Shown here: positions 6,988 to 57,935 of the stretch, in pieces
Layout of the letters: the number at the start of each line of letters is the position of its first letter
Numbering within the stretch: the stretch's first letter is position 1
Assembly (NCBI GenBank): GCA_963514005.1
Contig: OY740793.1
Span: forward strand, 21,142,001-21,206,000
Direction: 5' to 3'
Source: Raja brachyura
Lineage: Eukaryota
Length of the DNA stretch: 64,000 nt
Program-made: the position numbers and the translations under genes
The notes under the pieces: model-generated
Database searches by the model: none
What the model saw: the letters and a program-made list of their open reading frames with translations, nothing else
Told to the model about the DNA's origin: nothing

Positions 6988-9645
6988 AGCAGGAGATCTG
7001 TTCTTTACACACTGGTCAACCTGAGGAGTGCCTTAAACAACCGACTGGTTCCACGAAGATGCAATACAGAATGTCACAGGGAATCCTTCTTCCCTGTGGC
7101 TATCAAAATGTACATCTCCTTCCCCTTCTGTCGTGGGGTAGACTGACTCCCCTTCCCCCCCACCCTTCCCTCCTTAATCTTTGCACATCCCAATCCTTTT
7201 CACTCGTCACTTTAATTTCATGTTTCCTGCATCTTGTGTTTTATGACTATTAGCAGATCAATTTCCCTCCTGGGATAAATAAAGTTCTATCAAATTGCAT
7301 TGTGTCGACACTCCACGGATTACGTGAATATTATTTTCCTGGGAACTGTTTGTAACCCAAAGTTTCTGTTAAATCGTAAAGGATTGTCAGCTGAAATTGC
7401 TGTTGGGTGATATCACAATAGTTGCAGTGGTAGGTTAATTAGGTACAGGTTAATACAGATCTTCATTAATTTGAGATCCTAATTAGATCTTTGTTAAAAT
7501 TTGCTAATTGTTACAGATCATTACGAGAGATTTAAATCATACCAGAACATGGCAGTTGGCAGGCAACAAATTCCAAGGCAGAGTTTCAGTCTGCATTGCC
7601 ATCATTCTGCTGAGTAACTGATACAACAGCCCTCCTCAAGAAAGATGGAAATTATAAACAGAGTAATTATGGATTAATTTGTGGCACATTTCAAGGACTG
7701 ATTTCAAGTCATTCTGCCTTATCTAATTCATATCAATTCCCTGCATTTACTACATTTTTACACCTATTTTTCACTTCTTGTGATTTGGCTTGAAGCGTTC
7801 ACCTGGAAAGATCAGTGACCTTAGATTATTTACGTTGAAATTCAGTGACATCAATAGGATTCGAGTAGTGAATGGAAAAGCAGAATCACTTGGTGGTGCA
7901 GGCATGAAACAGCATGGGAACCCATGATGGGGATTCTCAGGAGGCTGTAGTTGGGCCACTGTAAAGCTGAAGGTCTAATTGCAGATATCTTCCCTCTCAG
8001 GGCCTGAGAGCCCAGATCCGCCTACTTCCCACATCAGGAGGTTGTGCTTCACTAGGCAGTCAGTGATATTTTTATACAATGAATTACAGCCTACTGTCCC
8101 AGCTGACCATGCATTCCCTGCAGCAGTGAAAATTACTGTGATTCGTGTTTCATTGATCTTGAGTGCTCACCAGATGTATTAGATGTTGGCAGTCCTATCA
8201 GTCAGTCTCTGCATCAGCCTGCAGTAGCACTACAGGCCTCCCCAAGTTCAAGCTATGATAGACTGTGACTGTGCATCCAGCACCCCCTACACCCCCCCCC
8301 CACCCCCACCCACACACTTAACCAGATGTCATCCAGAGTGCCTGCGCGTCATTACATCAGACACGCTTGGCGCACCGACAGTCTGGAGTGCACAGCTCCA
8401 CCAGCGGTAAGTAAAACGCCCGCAGGTAAGTGTTTTAAACGTTCTGCGGTTTACTAGGTCCCGTAAAGCTGGTTACAGGAGCCAGCAGGGACACTTCCAA
8501 AGGGAAAAAATATTAACAGAGAAAATAAGGCGAGTGTGTCACCTATAAAGTAAAATTTACCCGTGTGGCTGCGGTCAGCGGGTGTACGCCAGCTTTGAGA
8601 CGCCGACTTCAGAGCCGCCGGCAGTTCAGGCAGCGGCAGCAATTCCGGTGCTTTACAGCACTGAGGCCACTCCTGTCGGGAGGCAGGCCAAGAGTACATT
8701 GTCCAGGCCTGTCAACTCTGATGAGTGAGGCCAGAAAGACTTTTTCCCTTCTAAAAATAAAGGTTGGGGACGGTTGGACAACGTGGAACAACTCATGGAT
8801 AAAATGATCAACCGGGAGGTGTTCCAGCCAGGATTTTATACCCCAGGGTCCCCAGCAGCTTTCAGCAACCTCTAGCAGAGGTCCGTATTACAAAAGAGCT
8901 GTACACGTATATGAAATATAATATGCCTATGAGTCTGCATGGGGACCCATAACAGCAGCGCCTTTTTAAAGGCTGCATGATACCTCCCGTGAGCATGAGC
9001 CGGGAGAGCCAGGGCAGTATGAATCTGACCCTGAGGTTTGGTGTCACTGCTTATGTGCATACATCAAAGCACATGAGCTATGCTCCGGATGTGGCCAGCA
9101 ATTTTGCCATACCGGCGGGAACTGGTGAAGCCATGGATGACAATCTGGCCAGCAATTTAATTATATGGCCTCTCACCAGCTCCAGGACTCCATAATGGAG
9201 GAAACATCGCAAGAGATATCAGACACCTGTTAACTTTGCATCGCTCTAAAGGGGCGCATCATGAGGGCGCATGAGTTAAGGCTGCAGAAAGTCCTAAAAA
9301 CTGGTTGGAGCAGGAATAATGGTGTTTGGGCAAATGGTACAAGGGCACCACTATCAAAACACAGCAGGCTATGGACCCTGCTGTGTAATGCCCATTTTGA
9401 AAATTAATTATTCACAAAATAGCCAGCAAGCCTACGCTCAACCCACGGTTCACAGCTTTGTGCAGATCCTCTATTATCCAGGAAAAGACCTGGGCGATGA
9501 GGCAAAAACAATCGGCCTCATTAAAACTCATCCTGAGACCAGGATGCCACCTCAAAAACCATACCCTTTCAGAACGGGAAGGGGTAATTGAACTAGAGAC
9601 GATGGTGCAGGTCAAGGACCAAGCCGGGCGACCCCAGCTACATGT

Positions 9646-9731
9646 ATCGCTCTTCGGGGTTTTGGCTGAGATCAAGTGTAGCATATGTTCTTATCAGTTT
9701 AATATCTGATACGTCCCTTATCTAGGGACCA
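9646..9731 (+). pseudogene. RNU2: U2 snRNA 5' fragment (3'-truncated copy) inside DIRS
   Basis: ATCGCTCTTCGGGGTTTTGGCTGAGATCAAGTGTAGCATATGTTCTTATCAGTTTAATATCTGATACGTCCCTTATCTAGGGAC starts at U2 nt 1. 64/71 match to recalled human U2, including a 31-nt exact run (9686-9716). Stem IIb GTCCCT/AGGGAC intact; no Sm site or 3' stems. Confidence 0.9.
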
Positions 9732-9849
9732 AAACATTGGCACGCTCCAATGCACACCCCAAACAGGGCTAGGGGACCAAGGAATCCAGCAACCATGAAG
9801 GCACAAGTACTGGACTAGTCCAGGATGTATCCTCTAGAGGTCAGTCACC

Positions 9850-11693
9850 GGTCGGGGGTAGGTTGCAATTGTTCTATGATACATGGTGCTGCATAACATC
9901 AGATCTATTCATACTGGACTGTATCCGGGGGTCTCGAATGGGGTTTATCTCGGATGTACATCCACCTGTACAAAATACACCTAGTCGGGTATTGGGTTTT
10001 CAATACCAGAAACTCTACAGGTGAATGATGAATTTGGAATATTATTCCAAAAAAGGGGTAATGAAAAGGACGGCATATCAGCCTGAACAATGTGTGTCCA
10101 ATATTCCCCAGGCAAAAGAACAATGGTCGAGTCATTCTGGACCTAACCAGACTTAACTCTTAGGTCCAGTATAAACATTTCTTAATGGAAACTTTCAGTG
10201 CTGCTAAGCAACTGGTATCAAAAGGGTGTTATATGGCAACCACCTTTCTGGAAGATGCATATTATTCAGTGCCAATACCGTAGATACTTGAAATTACGTT
10301 GGATGAGACAGCTGTGGAAATTTAAAGTTTTGCCCATGGGTTAACCTTAGCACTAGGTTATTTACAAAATTGTTGAAACCAGTATCAGGGCTACTCTGTG
10401 CTCAGAATCGCATTGTAATGGCATATTAGGATGATGTTTCTGATCATAGGTAAAGCTCAGGATGCAACTGAGGAATTGGGTTCAGTTACCAAACACCTGT
10501 TTAAGAGGTTAGGCTCCTCACCCATCTAATTAAATCCAAATTAGTACCATCTAGAATGATTGACTATTTGGGGCTCATCATTGATTTAACTAACATGTCA
10601 GTTACTTTGCCTATGGCCAAAACTGTAAATTATGAAGGCCTGTAGGAATCTAGTTGATGAACAACAACCCTCCATCTAATGAGAAACCAGTGTTATTGGT
10701 AAATTAGTGGCGGGTTTTCCCTGCAGTACAGTTTGGACGTCTGCACTATCAGAATGTGCAACGAGCTAAACAACAAGCACTGAAAGAACATGCATTTCAA
10801 TAGACCAATGCAGTTGTCAGCCGAAGCTATCGCTGAGTTGCAATGGTGGATAACTAATGTCTCACGATGTACTAGAGACATTCTGACTTAATAACGTTCA
10901 GTTTACAAACTGATGTGAGTGCTTTGGGATGGGGAGCCACTGATACCGAGTCTAGCTGTGGCGGCAGATGGAATGTGGAAGAGGCATTAATCCAGCAGAG
11001 GCATGGGATGAACTACGTAGAATTGCTGGGTGCATTCTATGGCCTAAAAGCATTCTGTTCAACAATGCATGATTTGCATGTGCAGCATCAAATTGACAAT
11101 ACCACAGCTGTTGCATATCAATCATATGGGTGGAATTAGGTCATTATTTTGTGACAATCTGGCTAACCTCATCTGGCACTGGTACATTACGAGAAACATC
11201 TGTGTCTCAGATATCTACCTACCAGGTAGAGATAACGTGAAAGTGGCAGACACCAGGTCACGTAAATTCAATGACAACACAGAATGGATGCTGAATCCAA
11301 AAGTTTTCAAAATGATTGGCAGCCGGTATGGATTGCTAGACGTAGGTCTGTTGCATCCAGGTTAAATCACCAGTTACCTAAATATGTCTCATGGGAACCA
11401 GATCCAGGGGCAGTAGCAGTGGATGCATTCTCGCTACATTGGGGACGTACGTTTTTACTCTATTCCCCCATTCTGCCTCATCAGTCAATGTCACACAAAA
11501 TAGAGCTCAACTACGCTTTAGGCGTTTGGTAGTTCCTAACTGGTCCACACAGCCATGGTTCACATTGGTTCTAAGACTGATGACACAGCCATTCATGACT
11601 ATCCCCAAATGCAGCAACTTGTTGTTTCACCCTGGGACAGGAGAGAGTCACCTTTTACATGATCGTATTAATCTGTTGATTTGTATCTTCTGA
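9850..11693 (+). pseudogene. DIRS pol (RT-RNase H-methyltransferase-like), disrupted
   Basis: ORF fragments 10915-11139, 11069-11365, 11284-11532 and 11391-11693 carry successive DIRS RH/MT motifs in shifting frames. Confidence 0.85.
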
Positions 11694-12610
11694 CCAGACT
11701 GTTCCAGGGACTTGGACTATCGAGTAGGACCGTGGATGTGATTATGGTGGCCTGGAGTGATAGTACTAAAAAACGATATGTATCTCATATTAAGAAATGG
11801 GAGATGTTCTGTTTACAGTCTCATATATCTTATCATACTGCAGGCATACCGGATGTATTGGAGTTCCTTGCTACATTGCATTTTGACGAGCAATTAAGCT
11901 ATAGTGTCATTAATAGTGCTCGAAGTGCTTTGTCCTCCTATTTAGGGCAAGGGTCCGGCCAACACTCTGTCGGATCTCATCTATTGGTGGCCTGATTCCT
12001 GATTCATTTTTTAACAAAAACCCACCCAGACCTAGATATACGAAAATCTGGGATGTGAGCATAGTTCTCACACTGCTTCGGCAATGGGCTCCAATTACAT
12101 CTCTGCCTTTCCAGAAGTTAACGCTCAAAGTGGTCATGTTCATGGTGCTAGTGTCAGCGCAACGGGTCAAGATATTGCAAAAGTTACGACTGGACAGCAT
12201 GCATTCTTCTCTAGATAATATTAGGTTTTATGTATATGATCTAATCAAACAAAGCAGGCCAGGGATGGCTGGAACCAAAATAAGCTTAAAGTATACCCCA
12301 TTGACCTGAGACTATGTGTAGTTACGCACCTGAGTCAATATATCAAGGTCATCCAGAGTCTCAGAGGCTCTGAAACAGCGATGCTCATCAGCCACAAAAA
12401 ACCTCATACAAAGGTGTCAGTACAAACTATTTCTAGATGGCCAAAACAGGTTTGGATTAAGCTGGAGTAGACACTGATGTGTTTAAATCTCACTCTACCA
12501 GGGCGGCATCAACGTACACAGCAAAGGCGCAGGACGTGCCTTGAGACCAAATCCTCACTGCAGGATGGTCCAGTGAAGGAACCTTTTTCAAGATTTATGA
12601 TAAACCTGTC
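11681..12610 (+). pseudogene. DIRS tyrosine recombinase, disrupted
   Basis: STKKRYVSHIKKW, YSVINSARSALSS, KLTLKVV..LVSAQR, HSTRAAS (~12490) and GWSSEGTFSRFYDKP (~12565): R..H-x-x-R..W..Y catalytic signature. Confidence 0.88.
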
Positions 12611-12864
12611 CTTGCAATGGAAGGATTTGGGCATGCTGTTTTGGGTTCTGTTTGAGTTCTCCTTTGTAATTTCCCCTGCGAAAGAGGGGTTATTACAGTT
12701 CTTTTATTGTTTAAGACGTTCATTGCATAATTTAAACAATGTTCAATACATTATTTGTTTATCCTGTGTCAACCGAAGCAGTGTGTCGTATGGAACTGTA
12801 TCTATGGCATGAAATCACAGAGCTTTGAAATCTTCACGGAATCACTTACGTGACTCCGAAGTAA

Positions 12865-13167
12865 AATAGTAAGATTAAATGAGAACCTACCAGTTTGAAG
12901 TTTGATCTTTATTTTATGGCGAGTTACGGTGAGCGATTACATGCCCTCCGCTCCCGGCCCTCATAATCGCAAAGATCATCTGGTAGTTCTAGACTTCTGA
13001 GTCTTAATATATCACTTCGACTGTAGTTACTGTGATTTCACGCCGCTGCTTTGAAGATTGACACGCAGGCGCTCTGGCGGGGCTTCTGCACGTAATCGCT
13101 CACCGTAACTCCTCATAAAATAAAGATCAAACTTCAAACTGGTAAGTTCTCATTTAATCTTACTATT
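12865..13167. repeat. DIRS internal complementary region (12865-12944) inverted against the 3' terminus (13088-13167)
   Basis: 80-bp inverted repeat with 4 mismatches. Also 8333-8351 is inverted to 13059-13077 (ITR remnant) and 12806-12820 is inverted to 13030-13044. Confidence 0.9.
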
Positions 13168-18792: not shown

Positions 18793-19790
18793 AAACATAG
18801 AAACATAGAAACATAGAAATTAGGTGCAGGAGTAGACCATTCGGCCCTTCGAGCCTGCACCGCCATTCAATATGATCATGGCTGATCATCCAACTCAGTA
18901 TCCCGTACCTGCCTTCTCTCCATACCCTCTGATCCCCTTAGCCACAAGGGCCACATCTAACTCCCTCTTAAATATAGCCAATGAACTGGCCTCAACTACC
19001 CTCTGTGGCAGAGAGTTCCAGAGACCCACCACTCTGTGTGTGAAAAAAGTCCTTCTCATCTCGATTTCCCCCTTATCCTTAAGCTGTGACCCCTTGTCCT
19101 GGACCTCCCCAACATCGGGACCAATCTTCCTGCATCTAGCCTGTCCAACCCCTTAAGAATTTTGTAAGTTTCTATAAGATCCCCTCTCAATCTCCTAAAT
19201 TCTAGAGAGTATAAACTGAGTCTATCCAGTCTTTCATCATAAGACAGTCCTGACATCCCAGGAATCAGTCTGGTGAACCTTCTCTGCATTCCCTCTATGG
19301 CAATAATGTCCTTCCTCAGATTTGGAGACCAGAACTGTACGCAATACTCCAGGTGTGGTCTCACCAAGACCCTATACATCTGAAGTAGAACCTCCCTGCT
19401 CCTATACTCAAATCCTTTTGCTATGGAAGCTAACATACCAATCGCTTTCTTCACTGCCTGCTGCACCTGCATGCCTACTTTCAATGACTGGTGTACCATG
19501 ACACCCAGGTCGCGCTGCATCTCCTCTTTTCCTAATCGGCCACCATTTAGATAATAGTCTGCTTTCCTGTTTTTGCCACCAAAGTGGATAACCTCACATT
19601 TATCCACATTATACTGCATCTGCCAAACATTTGCCCACTCACCCAGCCTATCCAAGTCACCTTGCAATCTCCTAGCATCCTCCTCACAGCTAACACTGCC
19701 CCTAGCTTAGTGTCATCCGCAAACTTGGAGATATTGCCTTCAATTCCCTCATCCAGATCATTAATGTATAGTGTAAATAGCTGGGATCTA
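18793..19790 (-). mobile_element. CR1 LINE 3' fragment
   Basis: RT C-terminus (FADDTKLG; [13 protein letters not shown]; RTRGHSL); (ATGTTTCT)n tail. Confidence 0.92.
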
Positions 19791-24880: not shown

Positions 24881-25082
24881 TTTAAGAAAGAACTGCAGAT
24901 GCTGGGAAAAATCGAAGATAGACAAAAAAGCTGGAGAAACTCAGCGGGTGAGGCAGCATCTATGGAGTGAAGGAATAGGCGACGTTTCGGGTCGAAACCC
25001 TTCTGACTTCGACCCAAAACGTTGCCTATTCATTTACTCCATAGATGCTGCTTCACCCACTTAGTTTCTCCAGCTTTTTTGT
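24881..25082 (-). mobile_element. Penelope-derived fold-back mini-element
   Basis: Inverted pLTR arms; ~19-bp TSD CTACCATTGATTTC(T/C)AATG at 24862-24880 and 25083-25101. Confidence 0.85.
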
Positions 25083-26523
25083 CTACCATTGATTTCCAAT
25101 GCTGCTCTTACTATTTACCTTCTGTGAATTTTTCTTATATACTTTTATCTTAATACCTTCACTGCCAGATTATTGGTACTCAGTGTAAAATAAAATCCCC
25201 TCTAAATCCCCCTGCCTTTCACATTATACCAATCCCCTCTATTTTTTAAACACACACCATGAGAACAAAGGTACTACCCTCCCCATCTATCCCCTCCTCC
25301 TCTGCTCCAAGGAAACCAACCCCTGCCTGTCTATTTTCCCTTTATAATTGAAATGTTCGAATCCAGGCAACATCCTGATAAATCGCCTCTGCACTTTCTC
25401 CCGAGCAATCACATCCTTTCTATACAGTGGAAATCACAAATGTGTACTCCAGGTGTGGCGTGACCAGTATTTTATAAAGTTGTAACGCAATATATCTGCT
25501 CTTATGTTTTATGCCACGTGAAAAAGGCAAGCATTCATGGGTGTCTTCTTCACCACTCTATCCCGCTGTGCTGCCACTTTTAGGCATCTATCGACTTGTT
25601 CCTAATGACCTTATCTTTACCACACTCCCTAGGCTCCTATGCTAAAAGAATAGATCAATCCTAGCCTTATTTGACCTTTCAAAGTCCATTTCTTTCCACG
25701 TCAGGGTTCCACCCAATTTTCATAATCAATATCCTTGCCCAAATCAATATCATCCTAAAATAATCTTCCTCATCTTCTACGACACCTCAATTTTTTTATG
25801 TCACCTACATATTTACTAATTGTCCTGCCAGCATTCCTGAAGTTCAATGGAAGGGATTTCAAGTGGCAAGTGATGTCCTGGTGAAATCTCCATAGCCCAA
25901 TGATCTCAGCAAGCAGCTTTTTCTCAATTCTCACATAATGTATCATTGCATCTGTCAGAGCTTCTTATCAACTTATCTTATTGCAAGATCATTGCTGTAA
26001 GATGCATTTCTGAAACATCTGCCTGCAGTGTCGGCTCCCTCGTGTCATAAAAAATATCTTAACATATCTTAATATCTTAAATATCTTAACATCCGTTGTG
26101 ATCACCTCCTTCATTCATTCGATCACTTGCTCTTCAGCATGCAATCTACAGCAAGATACATCCTTTTTGGTCAGCTGTCAGAGTGACTCACCCATCTTAG
26201 TAACTTTATCACAATGGTTGCATATTGTACTCCTGCAATATCGGTTACTTACCATCTCCTTCACTACATTCACTTGGTTTGGTCTATTTCCAGATCATCG
26301 TTTGGCGATCAACTGTCCTTTGAATAAACTGTTTTCATTTTGAACATCAAATTTTACTTTGTCTTCAGTTGCTCATCCCCAAAATGACTCATCGTGACAG
26401 TTTGCTTTTATTATGTCTGATTTTCTTCAGATTTTATAATTTTATATTCACCATTTCACAAATATACAAAAAAAAACATTGGAAGACCCAACAAACTTAC
26501 TTCAATAACATTTCGAAATAATT

Positions 26524-28713: not shown

Positions 28714-29856
28714 CTAGTCCAAGGTGACAGAATAGACAGAGGCACTTCTGACCACTGATTCCTTGTGTATTTTGCGCTCACGCATTTTGTTTGATACTGA
28801 TCGTTGAACGCGAGCTTTCCTTCTCCATGTAGCATGCACAAATTTTCCTCGATAATTGTCTCCAGCCAGGAAGTACAAAATAGGGTCAATGCAGCTGTTG
28901 ATGCTGGCTAGTGGTCTTGTGATTTTATATGTGAAGTTCACAATGTTAAGTGCATGGCAGTTCTTCTTCAGTACCCGGAAGGTGTAATACATTGTTCTTG
29001 TGATGTGGAAAGGTACAAAACACAGAAAAAAGACCAGCAACACGATGATGATAAGTTTAATGGCCTTGTTCTTGACAATGGATGGGGCTGTGCTGTAGTT
29101 GGATCCATGTGCTTTGCTCAACTTTCTGGTCATTAAGCTGTAACAGACAGTAATGGTGAAGAAGGGAATAACGAAAAGAATCACCATAATGGCAGAACTG
29201 TACAAGACGTACCGTGGAAAATCCTCCCTGCGGGTTGTGTCATGACAGAGTATGTCATCACCTCGCTTGCTTGTTGTGACAAACAGTAAATTGGGGATGA
29301 GGCAGATGATGACAGATATCCAGACCAGCATACTCACAATCCAGGCACGTTTTGCTTTCATCCACATGAGTGATTGAATGGGGTAGCACACACCCAGGTA
29401 CCTGTGGACACTGATGCAGGTAAGAAAAAGGATGCTGGAGTACAGATTGGCATAAAAGAGGAAGCGGGTTAATTTACAAAGGACTACACCAAATGGCCAA
29501 TCGTTACGGTTGGCATAGTAATATGTAAGGAGTGGCAGAGATAACACATAAAGAAGATCTGAAATGGCCAGGTTAAACATGTAGATTATACTGGCAGTCC
29601 ATGGCCTCATCTTACACACAAACATCCAAAGTGCTGTTGTATTGAGAACTAGGCCCAGCACGCACACTGTTCCATAGGACATTGGCAATAAGATGAATTT
29701 GAACTCCTCATTAAAATGACAACTGTCATTTTTACCACCAGAGCCACTAGCATTACCAGACGCAGTTTGCAGAGACTCATATTCAGGAGGTCTTGTGATT
29801 GAGGTTGTTGAATCAGTAGAGCGCAGATGATAGTTCAGAAGTATTCCCCCTGCCAT
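28714..29856 (-). CDS. P2RY4: P2Y purinoceptor 4-like class A GPCR (380 aa, single coding exon)
   Basis: Intact 7-TM ORF with P2Y2/4 motifs: CHFNEEFKFILLP, SVHRYLGVC (HRY in place of DRY), LCHDTTRREDF, CFVPFHITRT, KITRPLASINSCIDPILYFLAGD. PNLLFVTTS, HDTTR and LNIVN match P2RY4 better than P2RY2 (recalled sequences). Confidence 0.92.
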   Translation of the reverse strand: MAGGILLNYHLRSTDSTTSITRPPEYESLQTASGNASGSGGKNDSCHFNEEFKFILLPMSYGTVCVLGLVLNTTALWMFVCKMRPWTASIIYMFNLAISDLLYVLSLPLLTYYYANRNDWPFGVVLCKLTRFLFYANLYSSILFLTCISVHRYLGVCYPIQSLMWMKAKRAWIVSMLVWISVIICLIPNLLFVTTSKRGDDILCHDTTRREDFPRYVLYSSAIMVILFVIPFFTITVCYSLMTRKLSKAHGSNYSTAPSIVKNKAIKLIIIVLLVFFLCFVPFHITRTMYYTFRVLKKNCHALNIVNFTYKITRPLASINSCIDPILYFLAGDNYRGKFVHATWRRKARVQRSVSNKMRERKIHKESVVRSASVYSVTLD

Positions 29857-31812: not shown

Positions 31813-31903
31813 AGTCTGACACCATTATTAACGTGCAAAATTGTCAACGTTTAAGGTGAGAAAGTCATGTACCATAAATTGAAAAGAATCACACTTTATT
31901 ATC

Positions 31904-32078
31904 TAAGGAGCGAAGGAGATAGGCGACGTTTCGGGTCGAGACCCTTCTTCCAGGAAGAAGGGTCTCGACCCGAAACGTCGCCTATCTCCTTCGCTCCTTA
32001 GATGCTGCTGCACCCGCTGAGTTTCTCCAGCTTTTTGTGTAACTCTCGATTCTCCAGCATCTGCAGTTCCTTCTTTAA
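31904..32078 (+). mobile_element. Penelope-derived fold-back mini-element
   Basis: Perfect 51-bp inverted arms 31901-31951 / 31953-32003; TSD CACACTTTATTATC at 31890-31903 and 32079-32092. Confidence 0.88.
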
Positions 32079-34589: not shown

Positions 34590-37500
34590 AATGGGAAGAA
34601 GAGGAAGGAGGTTCTCCAACGTGAGTTCAGAGAGTTAGGAAGAAGACCGAAAAGCAGGACTTCTAGGGTGGTTATATCTGGATCGCTTCCAGTACCTCGT
34701 GCTAGTGAGGACAGGAACAGGGAGATAGGGGATCGGAATGTGTGGCTGAGGGGCTGGAGCAGGAAGCAAGAATTTAAATTTACAAACCACTGGGATCTCT
34801 TCTGGGGTAGGTGGTGACTTGTGTAAAAGGGACGGGTTACACCTTAACTGGAGGGGGACTGACATTCTGGCAGGCAGGTTTGCTAGGGCTACACGTGTGG
34901 GTTTAAACTAAATAGTGGGGGGAGGGATTGACAAATTCGGAGTATAAAGATGGAGTTGAAGGGGAAGTGAGTACAGGAAAAATTAGAAAGATTCTCGAAT
35001 TAATGGGAAGGAAATTTCGAGAAGGGATAAAAGAGTAAGGTCAGGGCTAATTGCGAGCGGTGCGAGGGGGGACGTGAATACGGAGGTCAAAGTGTTGTAT
35101 ATGAATGCGCGAAGTTGGACGAACTTGAGGTTCAGTTAGAAATTGGCAAGTATGATGTTGTGCGAATTAACAGAGACATGGCTGCAAGAGGGCCAGGGCT
35201 GGGAACCGAATATTCAAGAGTATACCTCCTATCTAAAAGACAGACAGGTGGGCAGAGGGGGTGGGGTACGTTTGTTAGTGAGGAATGAAATTCAGTCCCT
35301 TGCAAGGGGTGACATTGAAACAGGAGATGTGGAGTCAGTATGGATAGAACTAAGGAATTGTAAGGGTAGAAAGACTCTAGTGGGACTTATCTACAGGCCC
35401 CCAAACAGTATCCTGGACATAGGGTGCAAGTTGAATCAGGAGTTAAAATTGGCATGTAGCAAAAGTATTGCTGTGGTTGTTATGGAAGATTTCAACATAC
35501 AGGTAGACTGGGAAAATCAGGTTGGTACTGGACCCCAAGAAAGGGACTTTGTAGAGTGCCTTTGTGATGGATTCTTAGAGCAGCTTATATTGGAGCCTAC
35601 CAGGAAGAAGGCAATTCTGGATTTAGTGTTATATAATGAACCGGATTTGAAAAAGGAATTTGAGGTTAATGAGCCATTAGGAGGTAGTGACCATAACATA
35701 GTCAGGTTTAATCTATAATTGGAGAGGGAGAAGGGTAGATCGGAGGTGTCAGTGTTACAATTGAATAAAGGGGACTAAGGGGCCATGAGGGAGGAGCTGG
35801 CCAAAGTTGACTGGAACGATACTCTAGCAGGGATGACAGTGGAACAACAATGGCAGGTATTTCTAGGAATAATACAGAAGGTGCAGGATCAGTTCATTCC
35901 TAGGAGAAAGAAAGATTCCAAGGGGAATAAGGGGCGATCGTGGCAGACAAGGGACATCAGGCTAGGTATAAAAATAAAAGAGAAGAAGTACAACATAGCA
36001 AAGATGAGCGGGAAGCAAGAGGATTGGGTAATGTTTAAAGAGCAACAGAAGATAACTAAAAAGACAATACGGGGAGAAAAGACGAGGTATGAAGGTAAGC
36101 TAGCCAAAAAAGGAGGATCGTAAATGCTTCTTTAGGTATGAGAAGAGGAAAAAAATAGTTAAGACCAAAGTTGGACCCTTGAAGACCGAAAAAGGTGAAT
36201 TTATTATGGGGAACAAGGAAATGACAGATGAGTTGAACAGGTACTATGGATCCGTCTTCACTAAGGAGGACACAAACAATCTTCCTGATATAGTAGTGGC
36301 CAGAGGATCTGGGGTGATGGAGGAACTGAAGGAAATCCATATTAGGCAGGAAATGTTGTTGGGTAGACTAATGGCTGATAAATCCCCAGGGCCTGATAGT
36401 CTGCACCCCAGGGTACTTAAGGAAATGGCTCTAGAAATCGTGGATGCATTGGTAATAATTTTCCAATGTTCTATAGATGCAGGATCAGTTCCTGTGGATT
36501 GGATGGTAGCTAATGTTATCCCACTTTTTAAGAAAGGCGGGAGAGTGAAAACAGGGAATTATAGACCAGTTAGCCTGACATTGGTGGTGGGGAAGATGCT
36601 GGGGTCAATTATAAAAGATCAAATAGCCACACATTTGGATTTACGAAGGGGAAATCATGCTTGACTAATCTTCTGGAATTTTTTGAGGATGTAACTAGGA
36701 AAATGAACAAGGGAGATCCGGTGGATGTACCTGGACTTTCAGAAACCATTTTTGATAAGGTCCCACATAGGAGATTAGTGGGCAAAATTACGGCACATGG
36801 TATTTTGGGTAGAGTGCTGACATGGATAGAAAATTGGTTGGCAGACAGGAAACAAAGAGTAGGGATTAACGGGTCCCTTTCAGAATGACAGGCAGTGACT
36901 AGTGGGATACTGCAAGGCTCTGTGCTGGGACCGCAGCTATTTACAATATACATCAATGATTTGGATGAAGGGATTCAAAGTAACATTAGCAAACTTGCAG
37001 ATGACACAAAGCTGGGTGGCAGTCTGAACTGTGAGGAGGCTGCTATGAGAATGCAGGGTGACTTGGACAGGTTGGGGGAATGGGCAGATGCATGGCAGAT
37101 GAAGTTTAATGTGGATAAATGTGAGATTAACCACTTTGGTATCAAAAACAGGAAGGCAGATTACTATGTAAATGTCGTTGTTGGGAAGTACAACGGGATC
37201 TGGGGGTCCTTGTTCATCAGTCTATGAAAGTAAGCATGCAGGTACAGCAGGCAGTGAAGAAAGCAAATGGCATGTTGGCCTTTCTAACAAGAGGAGTCGA
37301 GTATAGGAGCAAAGAGGTAATTCTGCAGTTGTACAGGGCCCTAATGAGACCACACGTGGCGTATTGTGTGTAGTTTTAGTCCCCTAATTTGAGGAAGGAC
37401 ATTCTTTCTATTGAGGGAGTGCAGCATACAAGGTTAACAAGGTATTAGGTTTACAAGGTTAATTCCCGGGATGGCGGGACTGTCATATGCTGCGAGAATG

Positions 37501-37927
37501 GAGCGGCTGGGCTTGTACACTCTGGAGTTTAGAAGGATGAGAGGGAATCTTATTGAAACATATAAGATGGATAAGGGTTTGGACACGCTAGAGGCAGGAA
37601 ACATGTATCCGATGTTGGGGGAGTCCAGAACCAGGGGCCACAGTTTAAAAATAATGGGTAAGCCATTTAGAACAGAGATGAGGAAACACTTTTTCTCACA
37701 GAGAGTTGTGAGTCTGTGGAATTCTCTGCCTCAGAGGGTGTTGGAGGCCGGTTCTGTGGATACTTTCAAGAAAGAGCTAGATAGGGCTCTTAAAGATAGC
37801 GGAGTCAGGGGATATGGGGGGAAGGCAGGTATGGAGTACTGATTGGGGATGATCAGCCATGATCTCATTGAATGGCAGTGCTGGCTCAAAGGGCCGAATG
37901 GCCTACTCCTGCGCCTATTGTCTATTG
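34590..37927 (+). mobile_element. CR1 LINE, long degenerate copy (end of ORF1 esterase, APE, RT, 3' UTR)
   Basis: ORF1 SGNH-like VVISGSLPVP..WLRGW..NHWDLFWGR; APE TETWL, IYRPPN, LGGSDHN; RT KSPGPD, NYRPVSLT, QGSVLGP, ADDTKLGG; tail CTATTGTCTATTG; many stops and frameshifts. Confidence 0.93.
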
Positions 37928-38799: not shown

Positions 38800-39842
38800 G
38801 AAATGGAGTATGAAGGAAATAGAGAACTTATTACCATGTTGTCAGGACAACAACCTCTGTCTCAATGTCAGCAAGACGAAGGAGCTAGTTGTCGACTTCA
38901 GGCTGCATGGTGGAGTGTGTGCCTCAGTCGGCAACAATGGTGCCAAAGTGGCTGAGAGCTTGGTGCTAATATTACCAATTAAAGCAACTGCTAAGAAGGC
39001 ACACCAACGTTTCTACTGCTTGAGGAGACTGGGTAAATGAGGAGCATGTCTCCAGTGAGTCTTACAAACTTCTACATATGCACCATAGAAAGCATATTGT
39101 CAGGATGCATCACAGCTTGGTTTGGGTAGACAAAAATGCTGGAGAAACTCAGCGGGTGAGGCAGCATCTATGGAGCAAAGGAATAGGTGATGTTTCTTCA
39201 GTCTAAAGAAGGTCTCGACCCGAAATGTCACCTATTCCTTCGCTCCATAGATGCTGCCTCACCCGCTGAGTTTCTCCAGCATTTTTGTCTACCTTTGAAT
39301 TTTCCAGCATCTGCAGTTCTTTCTCAAACAGCTTGGTTTGGGAACAGCTGTGCCCAAGACCACAAAGAATTACAAAGAGTTTTGGGATTACCCAGACCAT
39401 CACACAAACTACACACTTCGCATCATGGACTCCATCTACATCACACTGCCAGGGAAAAAGCAGCCAACATAATCAAAGACGTCCCACACCAATCATTCCT
39501 TCTTCTCCCTGCTCCTGTTGGGCAAAAGATGCTTGAAAACATGCACCACCAGAGGAACAGCTTCTTCATCTCTGTTATCAGGCTTCTGACCAGTTCTTCC
39601 ATAAGCTGGGGTACTGTCTGATTCATCTTTACCTCATTGTGGACAAAATACTTTGTCTATGGAACTGGTGCATTACAATGCGGAGAACTGTATTCTGCAC
39701 TGTATCTTCCCCTTTGTTCTACCTATTGTATTTGATTAGTCTTGATTGTATTTATGGATGTATTATCTGATTTGCTTGGATAGCTTGATAAACAAAAGAT
39801 GTTCACTGCACCTTGGTATATGGGACAATAATAAACCTAGAC
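38800..39842 (+). mobile_element. Rex/Babar-like LINE 3' fragment (interrupted by a Penelope fold-back)
   Basis: NNLCLNVSKTKELVVDFR..KKAHQRFYCLRRL; tail TTCACTGCACCTTGGTATATGGGACAATAATAAACC. Confidence 0.75.
39127..39327 (+). mobile_element. Penelope-derived fold-back mini-element
   Basis: Inverted pLTR arms; TSD ACAGCTTGGTTTGGG at 39112-39126 and 39328-39342. Confidence 0.85.
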
Positions 39843-42787: not shown

Positions 42788-44401
42788 AAGAAACAAAGAA
42801 ACATCGAAAACAGGTGCAGGAGTAGGCCATTTAGCCCTTCAAACCAGCACCGCCATTCAATATGATCATGGTTGATCATCTAAAATCAGTACCCCATTCC
42901 TGCTTTTTCCCTATATCCCTTGATTCCATTGGAACTAAGAGCTAACTCTTGCTTGAAAATATCCAGTGAATTGGCCTCCACTGCCTTCTAGGGCAGAGAA
43001 TTTCACAGATTCACAACTCTGGGTGAAAACGTTTTTCTTCATCTCAGTCCTAAATGGCCCACCCCTTATTCTTAAATGGTGACCTCTGGTTCAGAACTCC
43101 CCCAAAACCGGGAACATTTTTCCTGCATCGAGCCTGTCCAATCCTTTAAGAATTTAGTATGTTTCTATAAGATCTCCTCTCAACCTTCTAAATTCCGCCA
43201 TCCCAATAATTAACCTGGTGAACATACGCTGCACTCCATCAATAGCAATAATGCCATTCCTCAAATTTGGAGACCAAAATTGCACACAATACTCCAGGTG
43301 TGGTCTCACCAGGGCCCTGCACTACTGCAGTAGGACCTCCTTGCTCCTAAACTCAAATCCTCTCGCAATAAAGCCCAACATGCCATTAGCTTTCTTCACT
43401 GCCTGCTGTACTTGCACGCTTACTTTCAGTGACTTATGTACAAGCACACACAAATCTCGATGCACTTCCCCTTTTCCTAATCTGACACCATTCAGATAAT
43501 AATCCGCCTTCCTGTTCTTGCCACCAGTGATAACCTCACATTTATCCACATTAAACTACATCTGCCATACATCCTGCCCACTCACCCAACCGATCCAAGT
43601 CACCCTGCACCTCATAGCATCCTCCTTACAGCTCACACTGCCACTCAGCTTTGTGTCATCTGTAAACTTGGAGATGTCACATTTAATTCCCTCGTGTAAA
43701 TCGTTAATATATATTGTAAATAACTGGGTTCCCAGCACCGAGCCTTGCGGCACCCCACTAATCATTGCCTGCCGTTCAGAAAAGGACCCATTAATTCTGA
43801 TTCTTTTCTTCCTGTCTGCCAATTAGTTCTCTATCCATGGCAATTCCCTACCCACAATAGCATGTGCTCTCATTTTGCACACTAATCTCCTGTGTGGGAC
43901 ATTATCAAAGCAGATCCACCACATCTACTGGCTCTTCCTTATCCATTCTACTTGCTACATCCTAATAAAATTCCAGTAGATTAGTTAAGCATGATTTCCC
44001 CTCAACTCAAGCATCTTCCCCACTACCGATGTAAGGTTAACTGGTCTATAATTCCCCACTTTCTCTCTCCCTCGTTTCTTAAAAAGTGGAGTTACATTGG
44101 CTACCCTCCAGTCCACAGGAACTGATCCAGAGTCGAGAGAATATTCGAAAATGATCACCAATGCATCCACAATTTCTAGGGCCACCTCCTTGAGTACTCT
44201 AGGATGCAGACTATCAGGTCCTGGGGATTTATCTGCCTTCAATCCCAACAGTTTACCCAACACCATTTCCTGACTAATGTGGATTCCCTTCAGTTCCTCC
44301 CTCCCACTAGATCCTCGGTCCCCTGGTATTTCTGGGAAATTGTGTTTTCCTTAGTGAAGACAGAACCGAAGTACTAATTTAACTGTTCTGCCATTTCCTT
44401 G
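42788..44401 (-). mobile_element. CR1 LINE RT/3' fragment
   Basis: ORFs 43322-43549, 43556-43822 and 43985-44266 with CR1 RT motifs; 3' UTR at 42800-42920. Confidence 0.9.
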
Positions 44402-44782
44402 TTTCAATTGCTAGTACAAATGTTTCGATGTAGGGGTTAGTATATTTTTCTGTATGTTTCTATAAGAATAAAAAGCATTTGTCTCAGCAAAGCGAGCCAC
44501 TATATAAAGAATGCTTCTTTAAAAATGTAAGTCATTTTTCAAGTTAAATAGCTGTAAATAAGTGTTTGTTAGTTGATATGACTGACTTTTCTCCAATGTG
44601 ATCGAGCTTTGATAAGTAAGACAGATCAAAGCAAATGAACTTCCAGAAAATAAATTTCAGGATAAATTGCTGACAGCAATCTATATACATTATTGATAAA
44701 TATTGAGTTCTTATAGAGAAGTCCAATTGATTTGCACTTCAAAACCTCACTAATCACAAATTCAACACAGCAAAAATAGTAA

Positions 44783-45414
44783 AGGGCCTGTCCCACTGAG
44801 GCAATTTTTTAGGCGACTGCCATAGTCGACCACCCTACGACAATGTCTACGACAATGTCGACGACAAGCTACAACAACCTACCACCTAGTCGACGTCAAG
44901 CTATGGCAAGCTACCGACAACCGGCGACCCATTAGGATGTCCACCTACGACAACCTGCGACCACACAGGCGACAACCTACGACAGCCAAAGTCAACCTAC
45001 GTCCATCCGCAACAAGCTATGACAAGCAACGACCTTGTCGGCGACAACTGAAGACAACTGAAGGTGGTTGACGTAGGTTGACGTAGGTAGTCGCCAATGG
45101 AATTCACTGCGGTCAGCACCGGCGATAACCTACGTTACCTGGCGACAACCTACGTCATCCTGGTGACCTACTACCACCACACCTATGTCACGAGATTACA
45201 AGCTACGATCCATGGGGTCAAAACAAATGTCGCCGCTAATGTTGAAAAATTAGCGGCGACCAGAATGACGTTATGACTTGTTGTGAAACTGAGGAAACTA
45301 CTCACGACCATGCAGGCAACATCCCAGCAACCACAAGCGAACATGTGGCGACTATTTGGTGACCGCATACCCTTCTGTAGTCGCATAAAAGATCGCCTAA
45401 GTGGGACGGGCCCT
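44783..45414. mobile_element. PIF/Harbinger-type MITE
   Basis: TIRs AGGGCCTGTCCCACT ... AGTGGGACGGGCCCT; TAA TSD. The empty site GTAAGGGTCTC is seen in the duplicate at ~48421. Confidence 0.92.
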
Positions 45415-47038
45415 TAAGGGTCTCTGTGGAATTAGTTTGCCGATAGTTCACAGCGGTAACTTTTTAGTTATAATCAGTCTAAATGTGATTCAGGGATACT
45501 GCAGAATGTGTCAACAAAATTGGTTTGGACAATATCTGTTTTCTATCAAACAAATTATTTTTACCTTGTTATGATGGAATTATATCAAAATTAATTGACA
45601 TTTTCAATCAGTAACAAGGAATCCATTTTTATTCATTTCTTAAAAATTGGGATTTTCAATTTATCTAGCTTATTAAGAATTTCACATGTCTTTGATGCTG
45701 CCAGAACCAGATAACTGATGCTGAACTCCAAGGTGTCAATAGATGTATTCCCACAGAATATTATTAATCACACCCTGAATTTAGCTAACCTCAATCCCAA
45801 CTCTGCAATTTGACACTGCTTTCAGTCTCTCATAGTCATCAGTGAAATTTACAGTGATCACCTTCTGAAAACATTTTAAAGCATTTATACAAATAATATT
45901 CAAGCATATCCTGGTAAGGAAAGAATACTAGACACTCAAAGAAGCTACCTTTCAGATAAAATATTAAATCAGGAATAGGTCTACTGTCTCAGAAGTACAT
46001 GTTGATTCTAAGGCACAATTCAGTAAAGACATAAGAAGTTCTCAAACTCTCAAACTGGGCAAATCAACAGATCACCTTTCCAGATTCATTAGTTTTATCC
46101 TTCATTACATTGTGAGACAAACTCACTGTTGTGCCTTTAACTTATTTCATGACTATATTTAGCAATTCTTTGCTCCAAAAACGTTTTGCTATATCTTTCT
46201 TTCCCTTTCGAATGTGGGATGCTCCCTTATTGATCGAGAATGGTTTAAATGAGTTCATCTCTAATCATAAAAAAGAAACAAGCACATTGAATACCATACT
46301 CACCAGACAGCTGTCTCTTGATAAGAGAAGTGATGTAACGTCGTGTCCTAGAAGCCGTCACTGATAATACTGTAATTCCATAAAACAGATATCATGTCCA
46401 CATTGAATTAAAAGCAAATTTTGCTGGCTGGCAGTTAATTAAGCCCACAGCAAAGTGAACCTCAAGTATGTTGTCCAGATCTATATTGCGTCCAACAGAA
46501 ACAACTTTCCAAAGAGTAAAAAAAAGAGGAATTAGTGATTTGCAGTTTGCTAGTTGATGTAAAAATAGTTGGACTCCAGCCAATTAATTTAGAGGAAGGA
46601 GAAAAAGTGTTCTGCACATCAAAACTACAAGCTGGGCTCTTCTGAAGTTTTATTACGTAAGTTTCAATTTTAATCTAAGGCTGGTCAATGGCTCTTCCAA
46701 TCAAAAGCTGAGGTTCAGAAATTATGACTTCTTCTATCTGCACCGAGTAAAGTTTCACACAAAGGTCAGCTTCACAGAAATACAGCAATGACAAACCAGA
46801 GCAAAATGCATAATCCAATTTACCTACTAACAAAGGAAACTGTCAGTGTCAGGGAGGCAAAGCCCAGAAATTTGATTACATAACATGGTTTCTTGCAGCA
46901 TTATGTGCAAAGTAAACAACTTTTCTTCAAGTGTAACATTACTGCAATAATTGTTGTCAGACACCCACATAATGAAGTCACTCCCCATGCAAAACGTACC
47001 GAGAACAATGACGGGGAAAATTCCCCATTTTTGGAGCA

Positions 47039-50899: not shown

Positions 50900-51975
50900 A
50901 CCATGGCTGACAAGGGAAGTCAAGAACAGTGTAAAAATAAAAGAGAAGTATAACAGCAAAGATGAGCAGAAATCCAGACTTTTAAAGAGCAACAGAAGAT
51001 AACTAAAAAGGCAATACAGGGAGAAAGGATGAGGTGCAAAGGTCAGCTAGCCAAGAAAATAAAAGATGATAGGTAAAGCTTCTTTAGGTATGTGAAGAGG
51101 AAAAGATTAGTTAAGACAAATGTGTGTTCCTTGAAGACAGAAACAGGTGAATTTATTATGGGGAACAAGGAAATGGCAGACGAGTTGAACAGGTACTTTG
51201 AATCTGTGTTCACAAAGGAAGTCACAAACAATCTCCAAATGTACTAGTGGCCAGAGGATCTGGGGTGACGAACTGAAGGAAATTCATATTAGGCAGGTGT
51301 TGGGACTGAAGGCTGGTAAATCAGCCAGGGCCTGATGGTCTGCATGGATATTGACATGGATAGAAAATTGGTTGGCAGACAGGAAACAAAGAGTCTCTTT
51401 AATGGGTCCCTTTCAGAATGGCAGGCGTGTGGTGTACTGCAAAGCTCTGTGCTGGGACCGCAGCTATTTACAATACACATTAATGATTTAGATGAAGGGA
51501 TTAAGTGTAACATTAGCAAATTTGCAGACGACACAAAGCTGGGTGGCAGTGTGAACTGTGAGGAGGATGCTATGAGGTTTCAGGGTGACTTGGACAGGTT
51601 GGGTGAGTGGGCAGATGCATGGCAGATGCATAACGCGGATAAATGTGAGGTTATCCACTTTGGTAGCAAGAACAGGAAGGCAGATTATTATCTGAATGGT
51701 GTCAAGTTAGGAAAAGGGGGAGTACAACGAGATCTGGGTGTCCTTGTTCATCAGTCACTGAAAGTAAGCATGCAGTTACAGCAGGCAGTGAAGAAAGCTA
51801 CTGACATGCTGGCCTTCATAACAAGAGGAGTTAAGTATAGGAGCAAAGAGTTCCTTTTACAATTGTACTGGGCCCTGGTGAGACCACACCTGGACTATTG
51901 TGTGCAGTTTTGGCCAGCCATGATCACAGAGAATGGTGGTGCTGGCTCAAAGGGCTGAATGGCCTAGTCCTGCAC
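50900..51975 (+). mobile_element. CR1 LINE fragment with internal deletions
   Basis: ORF 51335-51958: QSSVLGPQLF..FADDTKLGG..RPHLDYCVQFW. Confidence 0.88.
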
Positions 51976-54639: not shown

Positions 54640-56460
54640 CAAGTGTCCCTCGGCCAATCAAACACCCCTCAGCTGTATCCACCTATCACCTGGTTCCTGC
54701 CGCTCCCACCTCACTTTTCTTCCTACAACTACATTCAATATAGTTTCAAACACGAGACCAAACGTAGATTGGGCGATCGTTTTCGCTGAACATTTTCGCT
54801 CACTCCATCTGGGCCGACCTCATCTCCTGGTTGCCAAAACTTTAACTCTCATTCCCACATTAACGTCTACGCTGCATCTGCTCCCAGGATGAGGTGTTCC
54901 ACACCAGGGCATCGGAAATGTCATAATTCTTTAGGGAATGGGGGTTCCGCTCCCCTACTATAGATGAGGCTCTCACCAAGGTCTCTTCAATACCCCGTAA
55001 CAATGCTCTCTCTCCCCATAACAAGGGCAGAGTCCCCCTAGTCCTCACCTTCCACCCCACCAGCCGGCACATACAACAAATAATCCTCCGTCATTTTCGC
55101 CACCTCCAACGTGACCCCACCACTCGCCTCATCTTCCCATCTCCCCCCCTGTCTGCTTTCCACAAAGACCACTCCCTCCGTAACCCCGTGGTCAATTCTT
55201 CCCTGACCACCCGCATCACCCCATCCCCGGGCACTTTCCCTAGCAACCGCAAGAGATGCTACACGTGTCGCTTTACCTCCCCCCTCGGCTCCATTCAAGG
55301 ACCCAAACAGTCGTTCCAGGTGCGACAGAGGTTCACCTGCACCTCCTCCAACCTCATCTATTGCATCCGCTGCTGTAGATGTCAGCTGATCTACATCGGT
55401 GAGACCAAGCATAGGCTTGGCGATCGTTTCGCCAAACTCCTCCGCTCGGTCCACAATAACCAATCTTATCTCCCGGTGGCTCAGCACTTCAACTCCCCCT
55501 CCCATTCCGAATCCGACCTTTTTGTCCTGGGCCTCCTCCATGGCCAGAGTGAGCACCACCGGAAATTGAAATGGTAAATGGGTCAGTACGGGATGAATGG
55601 GTGAACACTTCTTCAGACTGATGTGGGGGGGGGGGGGGCGGGAAGAATAAAGGAAGAGGAGGAGCAAGAGGGTTGAGGGAGAGGAGAGAAGGGGAGGAGA
55701 CCATAAGGGCTACCGGAAATTGGAGTAGTCAATGTTCATGCCGCTGGGGTGTAAGTTACGGGGTATTGAACCTCCATTTACCCTGCACTGATCCCCCCCA
55801 TCCATCCTGTACCGATTCCCTCATTCATCCTGTACTGATCCCCTCATTCATCCTGCAGTGATCCCCCATTCAGGAAGAAGGGTCTCGACCCAAAACGTTG
55901 CCTATTTCCTTCACTCTATAGATGCTGCTGTACCAGCTGTGTTTCTCCAGCACTTTTATCTACCCACATTGACCTTTCTGTCCTGGGCCTTCTCCATTAT
56001 CAGAGTGAGGCCAACCGTAAATTGGAGGAACAGCATCTCATATTTTGCCTGAGCAGCTTACAACGCAGTGGTATGAATTTTGATTTCTCTAACTTCAAGT
56101 AGCCCCTGCATCCCCTCTCTCTCTCCGTCCCTCCCCCACCCTAGTCATTGTACCAGTCTCTTTGTCGTCCTGGTAAGTTTCATTGCCTGTAACTTGTTTT
56201 CACGAAGCCCACAACTAACAATGGCTGTTTCCTTTATCATTGTTACTTTTTTTGTGCATCTTTCATTCATTTGTTCTATATCTCTCTATATCACCGTTTC
56301 TATATCTCTCATTTTCCCAGACTTTCAGTTTGAAGAAGGGTCTCAACCGGAAACATCACCTATTCCTTTTCTTCACAGATGCTGTCTGATCCGCTGACAT
56401 TCCAGCTTTTTGTGTCTATCTTTGGTCTATTCCAGCATCTGCAGTTCTTTCCCACACCTT
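54640..56460 (+). mobile_element. Penelope-like element cluster (GIY-YIG endonuclease fragment plus pLTR pieces)
   Basis: ORF 55188-55577: C-x2-C, FTCTSSNLIYCIRC..C..IYIGET..RLGDRF..VAQHFN (GIY-YIG). pLTR with (C)TGAAGAAGGGTCTCGACCCGAAAC-type motifs at ~55875 and ~56330. Confidence 0.9.
55781..55872. repeat. ~23-bp minisatellite x4
   Basis: CCTG(C/T)ACTGATCCCC(T/C)CATTCAT-like units. Confidence 0.8.
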
Positions 56461-57139: not shown

Positions 57140-57935
57140 TCCGGAAGTGGCCATGCTGGCTGGCAGCTGCGGCTCACCTGCAGTCACCTGTATGGTTTTT
57201 TCTTTTTTTTTGTGTCTTTTTGTGATTGTTCGGTACAATTTTGTTTTATTAGGTTGTGTATTTGTGGGGGGGGGGGGGGGGGGAGGGAGAAACAGAGTCT
57301 TAGTCTTTCCCTTCGGGGGGGATGCATGTCCCCTGTCACCGTCTGTGCTGAGGCCTAATGGCGGAGCTGTGGTGGCCTAGTTCGGAGCTGCGGTGCTCCA
57401 GCGGTTGCGGTGGTCCGCTTAGAGCTGCGGTGTTCCAGCGGCGGCGGCGGCCTGGTTCAGAGCTGCGGTGCTCCAGCGGCGGCGGCCTGGTTCAGAGCTG
57501 CGGTGCTCCAGCGGCGGCGGCGGCCTGCAGAGCTGCGGTGCTCCAGCGGTTGCGGTGGTCCGCTTAGAGCTGCGGTGCTCCAGCGGTTGCGGTGGTCCGC
57601 TTAGAGCTGCGGTGCTCCAGCAGCAGCGGCGGCATGGTTCAGAGCTGTGGTGTTCGAGCGGCGGCGGCCCAGCTCAGAACTGCGGTGCTCCAGCGGCGGC
57701 GGAGGCCTGGATCGCCTCAACGCAGAGGGAGAACTAGGAGTGAGGATGACAGGGACTTAAGACTTTTGCTTTCCACCACAGTGAGGAGGTGCCTGGTGAA
57801 CTAATTGTGGTGGATGTTGGATATGTGTTTATTGTGTGTTTTGTTTTTATTATATGTATGACTGTATGGTAACAATTTCGTTCAGACCATAAGGTCTGAA
57901 TGACAATAAAGGAATCTAATCTAATCTAATCTAAT
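57140..57935 (+). mobile_element. Non-autonomous retroposon with internal GC-rich VNTR and LINE-like tail
   Basis: 3' ~230 bp shared with 1031-1326 (hairpins CCACCACAGT..; TTCAGACC-N4-GGTCTGAA; GACAATAAAGG); (ATCTA)n tail. Confidence 0.75.
57384..57710 (+). repeat. GC-rich minisatellite, ~9 units of 35-38 bp
   Basis: Core AGAGCTGCGGTGCTCCAGCGG followed by either TTGCGGTGGTCCGCTT or (CGG)nCCTGGTTC. Confidence 0.9.

Follow-up and report, generated by a model that had tools for sequence, protein, structure and literature searches.

How the 5′ part of a host snRNA came to lie inside a retrotransposon is the question raised by a locus of Raja brachyura, where a stretch of U2 snRNA sequence is flanked on both sides by a decayed element of the DIRS type. 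We analysed this locus within a window of 64,000 nucleotides (nt), the whole stretch of DNA under study. A first-pass annotation, made from the letters alone, had described the fragment as U2 embedded between gag and pol of a DIRS retrotransposon and had offered either a truncated retrocopy or capture by template switching as its source. The features discussed below are collected in Table 1.

Table 1. Features of the U2 fragment, its junctions and the surrounding element (positions in the window).
Feature	Position	Strand	Basis or remark
Decayed gag-like region, many frameshifts, limits approximate	8750..9645	+	Distant gag alignments, weak
Possible left inverted repeat remnant	8333..8351	+	17/19 complementary to 13059-13077
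Gag-tail unit opening with the junction word, exactly 10 codons, up to the U2 5′ junction	9616..9645	+	Word recurrence
U2 snRNA copy, 3′-truncated, nt 1-86, without Sm site	9646..9731	+	Rfam RF00004; 7/71 differences from amniote U2
Broken stem I region of U2 (nt 7, 8, 13, 14 and 23 changed)	9652..9671	+	Pairs 7-26, 13-20 and 14-19 non-standard
Branch-point recognition region, changes at nt 37 and 40	9678..9685	+	RF00004 alignment
U2 stem-loop IIa, intact, 6/6 Watson-Crick pairs	9692..9711	+	
U2 stem-loop IIb, 6/6 Watson-Crick pairs	9713..9729	+	
Seven-nt word at the 3′ junction, candidate microhomology, U2 nt 81-87 versus gag tail	9726..9732	+	Recurrence in gag tail
Third unit opening with the junction word; holds ATG 9795, closes in a stop	9774..9818	+	Word recurrence
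Decayed pol	9830..11571	+	Homologue P0006 and Pfam-named domain pieces
Reverse transcriptase (RT)	10128-10435	+	Pfam-named homologue piece
RNase H	10927-11118	+	Pfam-named homologue piece
Adenine-methylase-like domain	11353-11571	+	Pfam Dam match of P0019, below cut-off, E 0.0011
Decayed tyrosine recombinase	11711..12610	+	P0073 (Pfam Phage_integrase)
ICR-like arm	12865..12944	+	80 nt, 95% complementary to 13088-13167; fold z -15.4
Probable right end of element	13088..13167	+	Complementary to ICR-like arm

Identity and state of the U2 fragment

The fragment had been read as U2 from nt 1 to about 86, in sense orientation and ending before the Sm site, and an Rfam scan bore this out. Family RF00004 matched the plus strand with 71.6 bits (E 3.9e-12, cut-off 46), the copy starting at model position 1, and both the Sm site and the 3′ stems III and IV were missing from the alignment. 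Nothing else in the 64-kb window reached the gathering score; a scan by E-value returned four rows, of which one reached the gathering score, again U2. The formal envelope of the match runs to 9762, with aligned residues only to about 9737, and nt 81-86 (9726-9731) can be assigned either to U2 or to the element. Neither a second U2 copy nor any other small-RNA retrocopy was found elsewhere in the window.

The copy was compared by eye with U2 nt 1-71, which are the same in all nine amniote sequences of Table S10 of PMC5322556. It differs from this reference at 7 of 71 positions (nt 7, 8, 13, 14, 23, 37 and 40). Stem I is damaged, three of the seven pairs tested being non-standard, and the branch-point recognition sequence reads GTAGCA, just as had been claimed for it. 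Stems IIa and IIb together retain 12/12 Watson-Crick pairs. In stem IIb, both members of pairs 72-80 and 73-79 depart from amniote U2; as the reference here is amniote U2, these two-sided changes may just reflect what the U2 genes of the host encode. Three of the seven changes fall at what we take to be modified positions of U2, which is about chance level. The motif of this U2 variant was not found in the literature searched.

All seven changes lie within nt 1-46 and none in nt 47-71 (P 0.04, or 0.11 with the two doublets each counted once), a weak signal of clustering. The 5′ part showed no extra fold stability, 32% and 76% of 5,000 null sequences being equally stable. Four of the seven changes build a hairpin capped by cUUCGg at 9650-9659, which 0.46% of 5,000 null sequences matched; it was spotted post hoc and brings no overall gain in folding energy, and we dropped it as evidence.

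With its Sm site missing, stem I broken and the branch-point sequence altered, this copy cannot act as U2 or serve in splicing. The suggestion of a ‘spliceosomal RNA module’ was therefore too strong for the copy at hand. In the gag frame, U2 introduces a stop 8 codons after the insert begins, and it leaves pol untouched. At nt 23, the change swaps one gag-frame stop codon for another.

The DIRS-type element around the insert

The sequence around U2 is a decayed DIRS-type element with all open reading frames (ORFs) broken, and the DIRS context proposed at first pass held when its RT, RNase H, methylase-like domain, recombinase and ICR-like arm were mapped. Pfam-named domain pieces of homologues map in pol at E 1e-12 to 1e-13; together with the integrase piece, their order is RT, RNase H, methylase-like, integrase. 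A frameshift-aware alignment of P0006 covers 9830-11350 at 43.6% identity, with 5 stops and 11 frameshifts, and that of P0073 covers the recombinase at 52%, with 1 stop and 3 frameshifts (Phage_int_SAM_4, E 1.2e-4). The DIRS-1-like features present are RT and RNase H with a methylase-like domain behind them, a tyrosine recombinase, and an ICR complementary to the right end. DIRS-1-like elements as described in PMC7192593 likewise have RT, RNase H, methylase, recombinase and an internal arm complementary to the right end, along with a gag-like region whose counterpart here is tentative; the present element differs from them in that its left end was not found in the window, all its ORFs are broken and it carries the U2 piece.

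The gag part is far less secure. The gag halves of 6 of 11 distant homologues align best from 9410-9428, with weak scores of 35-54 against up to 38 for shuffles, and a profile hidden Markov model (HMM) built from 13 gag halves gave a single match in the whole window, at 9425-9475, which is non-significant (E 1.1). The placement of U2 between gag and pol stands only in part: the fragment is inside the DIRS element, but the sequence that receives it looks like the C-terminal end of gag, itself a weak call, and not like a gap separating two ORFs. The candidate pol ATG expected about 60 nt downstream is present, at 9795 and 63 nt after 9731, but it is out of frame with pol as read from 9851.

The left end predicted from 12800-12864 was absent from the window (best scores 20-25), and that of this copy has probably been lost. 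The inverted match at 8333 is borderline, scoring 28 against a shuffle 95% point of 26 and a maximum of 29. Split direct repeats of the PAT/Ngaro kind were rejected, the direct repeat between the 5′ and 3′ regions scoring 22 against a shuffle median of 21, with the 5′ end possibly lost. A 15-nt inverted match (12806-12820 with 13030-13044) crosses the main arms. Splice-donor-like GGTAAG motifs occur at 8406, 8425 and 13141 on the plus strand, which has 13 copies window-wide; they could serve spliced expression of pol or recombinase. The observed/expected CpG ratio is 0.77 (8330-8750) and 1.05 (12640-13167) at the element ends, 0.38-0.45 in its coding parts and 0.38 window-wide. The window holds no second copy of the DIRS element.

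Relatives of the element were searched for among proteins. With the gag-tail frame, 0 of 42 longer candidates and 0 of 1 near-length candidate span the junction, in a search with poor coverage of relatives; with the pol/recombinase frame, 3 of 749 candidates were retained, two of them named coral proteins, all distant and none spanning the junction. Among the best 150 of 4,565 hits of a HMMER scan, again none spans the junction: the only close relatives, P0003 (67%) and P0109 (77%), lie far downstream of it, and the gag-pol models are too distant to place it. Bacterial and archaeal genomes scanned for stray host DNA gave no match, and matches in the ESM Atlas were to eukaryote clusters only. 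Coverage being this poor, the absence of family members from these searches is no evidence either way. In the literature on DIRS or LTR elements together with U2 or snRNA, and on DIRS elements of cartilaginous fish, a DIRS-snRNA chimera was not found in titles and the beginnings of abstracts, a scope that leaves Repbase and supplements outside.

The rest of the window is of mixed content. An intact single-exon gene at 28714-29856 on the minus strand encodes a 380-aa G-protein-coupled receptor (Pfam 7tm_1, E 5.8e-56), which presumably resembles a P2Y nucleotide receptor; its exact sequence was absent from the protein collection searched. A family of short palindromic MITE-like repeats has several copies (24909-25095, 31901-32003, 39125-39293 and 55871-56457), one of which has a below-cut-off Rfam microRNA match, probably just a hairpin. 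Decayed LINE copies of one or more families occupy 35140-37925, 42789-47034, 51320-51975 and 18799-19788, with an endonuclease remnant at 35140-35715 and an RT remnant at 51320-51955. At 54927-55574 (+), a 216-aa open frame, with one of similar length opposite it on the other strand, shows a weak GIY-YIG match below cut-off (E 0.07) and is possibly a Penelope-like remnant. Self-matches mark a degenerate tandem repeat array at 57365-57713.

Junctions and relative age

The first-pass annotation saw no clear target-site duplication (TSD) or poly-A, and neither emerged on closer analysis. There is no A-tail at the U2 3′ end, and the best candidate for an ungapped TSD of 7-30 nt matches at only 5/7. 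Matches of only 4-5 nt are present, among them a 4-nt match between 9640-9643 and 9734-9737 with two extra bases; reading the junction as a 4-nt duplication is no better than chance. The 30-nt stretch that begins at 9616 was rejected as a TSD, with 13/30 matches to the right flank and 6/23 past the common word. The right flank begins with four A, like L1 target sites, and an 8-nt palindrome (9639-9646) lies across the 5′ junction.

Of the five plus-strand occurrences of the 7-nt junction word across the window, three start at 9616, 9726 and 9774. When the flanks were shuffled, another two copies within 110 nt turned up in 0.055% of cases (P about 0.0006); the same clustering occurred at 0 of 4,051 other element positions and at 0.6% window-wide, tandem repeats included. 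With an insert of 80 or 86 nt, the three units that open with this word stand in one reading frame, each opening with Gly-Pro. Past the word they are barely alike (P 0.05, 0.56 and 1.0), and the word itself was spotted post hoc. The simplest account is of a gag tail with three short units, where U2 nt 1-80 entered at the start of the second via a 6-7 nt microhomology, with nothing duplicated. The sequence before insertion would then already have had the junction word in the element.

The age of the insert relative to its host element was estimated from their changes. U2 divergence is 9.9% (7/71; CI 4-19%), or five events with each doublet counted once, beside an element decay of 5.5-6.2% (CI 2-13%, from 6 stops in 794 codons) and of 2.5% for each terminal arm (CI 0.7-6.3%). 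The probability of at least 7 changes in 66 is 0.10 at 6% decay and 0.001 at 2.5%. A U2 as old as the element is favoured 1.2- to 6.5-fold, according to the decay assumed, over one inserted later at a uniform time. The fragment shows no visible sign of being younger than the element, a weak signal given that the age intervals overlap widely.

Origin of the insert and its implications

Several known systems resemble this locus in part. Tailless U2 retropseudogenes (Noll et al. 2015, PMC5322556; Kojima 2010, PMC2912911) are likewise described as 5′-complete, 3′-truncated near a single-stranded region and without an A-tail. They have short complementarity at the 3′ junction, for which the counterpart here is the 6-7 nt word deduced from its recurrence in the gag tail; they also have a TSD, whereas none was found here, and the present copy lies in sense inside a DIRS element, in a host outside the therians and lizards. 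The species listed for that screen are 12 amniotes and three plants, with no fish (PMC5322556, Table S8). Template-switch chimeras of snRNA and LINE, and SINEU (Doucet et al. 2015, PMC4476161; Kojima 2015, PMC4494074), likewise join the 5′ part of an snRNA to a retroelement, and SINEU is reported as an example of U2-headed chimeras that can become families (PMC4494074). In those cases a non-LTR insertion is described that opens with the snRNA, closes in an A-rich or repeat tail and has a TSD; here U2 is internal, with element on both sides (hence two switches), and is joined to a retrotransposon of the tyrosine-recombinase kind. Patches of host RNA in retroviruses (PMC4997597; PMC4752605) share the internal non-coding RNA segment and the lack of a TSD, and show the junction microhomology for which the word here is a candidate; in retroviruses it is U2 precursors that are reported to be packaged, and the cases described come from culture and patients. 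Utopia and Keno (PMC4640811) also have U2 fragments beside a retroelement, and we considered U2 as an insertion target of this kind. That reading was rejected, since those elements are described as splitting U2 at nt 38/39, whereas here U2 is unbroken from nt 1 to 86 and inside the element.

The two mechanisms first proposed, retrocopy and template-switch capture, were the right ones to weigh; the evidence leans to the switch, with an independent tailless retrocopy as the less likely source. We graded all readings by judgement from rough likelihood ratios, not by a computed posterior. The one we favour, tentatively and at less than even confidence, is a template switch by the DIRS RT that left one or few copies. 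The enzyme would have copied DIRS RNA 3′ to 5′ through the gag tail until it reached the 6-7 nt word common to U2 nt 81-87, which forms the 3′ foot of stem IIb and adjoins the single-stranded A/U linker of U2. There it would have moved onto a co-located U2 RNA, followed this as far as the capped 5′ end, and returned to the DIRS RNA where it had left it; the resulting chimeric cDNA would have integrated as the copy seen here, which then decayed. We infer the enzyme, the order of events and the one-or-few-copy status. Our lean rests on the sense orientation, the exact start at nt 1, the 3′ microhomology, the lack of a TSD and a U2 that is not younger than the element; no TSD is seen although a decay of about 6% should leave one of 10-15 nt visible. 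Published work offers partial precedents: MLV particles are reported to enrich pre-U2 more than 100 times as strongly as mature U2 (PMC4752605), host RNAs including 7SL are described as patched into retroviral reverse transcripts through microhomology (PMC4997597), and the DIRS-1 RT is reported to work in trans (PMC7192593). The precedent for switching is, however, retroviral only, and host-RNA switching in DIRS would be an extrapolation from retroviruses. Moreover, a 3′ microhomology of 2-18 nt is reported as typical of L1-made tailless retrocopies too (PMC5322556), the 4-nt match and the flank of four A leave an alternative reading of the junction, and the argument leans on a reconstructed empty site, a post hoc junction word and overlapping age intervals.

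A LINE (L1/Tx1 or other) could instead have made a tailless U2 retrocopy by internal priming at a nick or break in an already integrated DIRS copy, which we hold to be rather unlikely. It is the best-documented route to such U2 pieces, and the 5′-complete, 3′-truncated, tailless shape fits a well-described class (PMC5322556; PMC2912911; PMC4494074) whose U2 members are reported to end in single-stranded regions with 2-18 nt of target complementarity (PMC5322556), so that 3′ complementarity is predicted here as well. The endonuclease and RT remnants of LINEs in the window and the four A of the right flank agree with it, and fish genomes are mentioned as containing U snRNA pseudogenes (PMC10532334). 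Against this, the TSD that defines the class (8-30 nt for L1) was not found at a length of at least 7 nt, U2 is not younger than the element, and orientation would be expected to be random; genomes with stringent LINEs are reported as being without 3′-truncated snRNA copies, with none for U6 in Xenopus (PMC4476161). Unlikely, too, is a U2-carrying DIRS subfamily, in which one capture in an active master was inherited, the U2 stop ends gag early, and stems IIa and IIb form a structured RNA about 60 nt before the start of pol. The hairpins might then act in translation re-initiation, in packaging or through stem II protein binding, and the 5′ part would have been free to drift. The insertion site is indeed among the few that an active element could tolerate, in a low-complexity gag tail and with pol untouched; the U2 changes are, if anything, above what element decay predicts and all fall within nt 1-46, every stem II pair holds (12/12), and the nt 23 change keeps a stop in the gag frame. 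A randomly chosen window would also be more likely to contain a multicopy feature than a one-off event. The subfamily is disfavoured by the lack of a second copy in the window and of any junction-spanning protein (in searches reaching almost no close relatives), and none was found in the literature; the 5′ part folds no better than random, and the stem IIb changes are maybe the host's own. Palindromes like that at the 5′ junction occur with templated repair fill-ins; together with the missing TSD, it would suit an origin at the DNA level, either a genomic U2 piece patched in by break repair or recombination, or an assembly error. We regard this as very improbable: the start exactly at the first base of the RNA points to an RNA template, a U2 that is mutated and 10% diverged is no mis-joined live gene, and the window contains no N.

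What the insert means depends on how it arose and on how many copies carry it. The insert would deserve attention only if U2 were present in further copies of the element too. Retrocopies of snRNA and snRNA-retroelement chimeras are already known for LINEs, and patches for retroviruses. A LINE-made insert would be an ordinary pseudogene whose slight interest lies in its being a tailless-type copy from outside the screened amniotes. DIRS reverse transcription is poorly understood, and its primer is described as unknown (PMC7192593); if the junction is DIRS-made, it would be a natural record of host RNAs in DIRS particles and of retrovirus-like template switching. If the insert is multicopy, annotation would count too many U2 genes, given that this copy clears the Rfam cut-off. 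It would then also represent a new retroelement architecture, the first family of tyrosine-recombinase retrotransposons with a built-in snRNA module, and would indicate that DIRS particles take up host snRNA and recombine with it.
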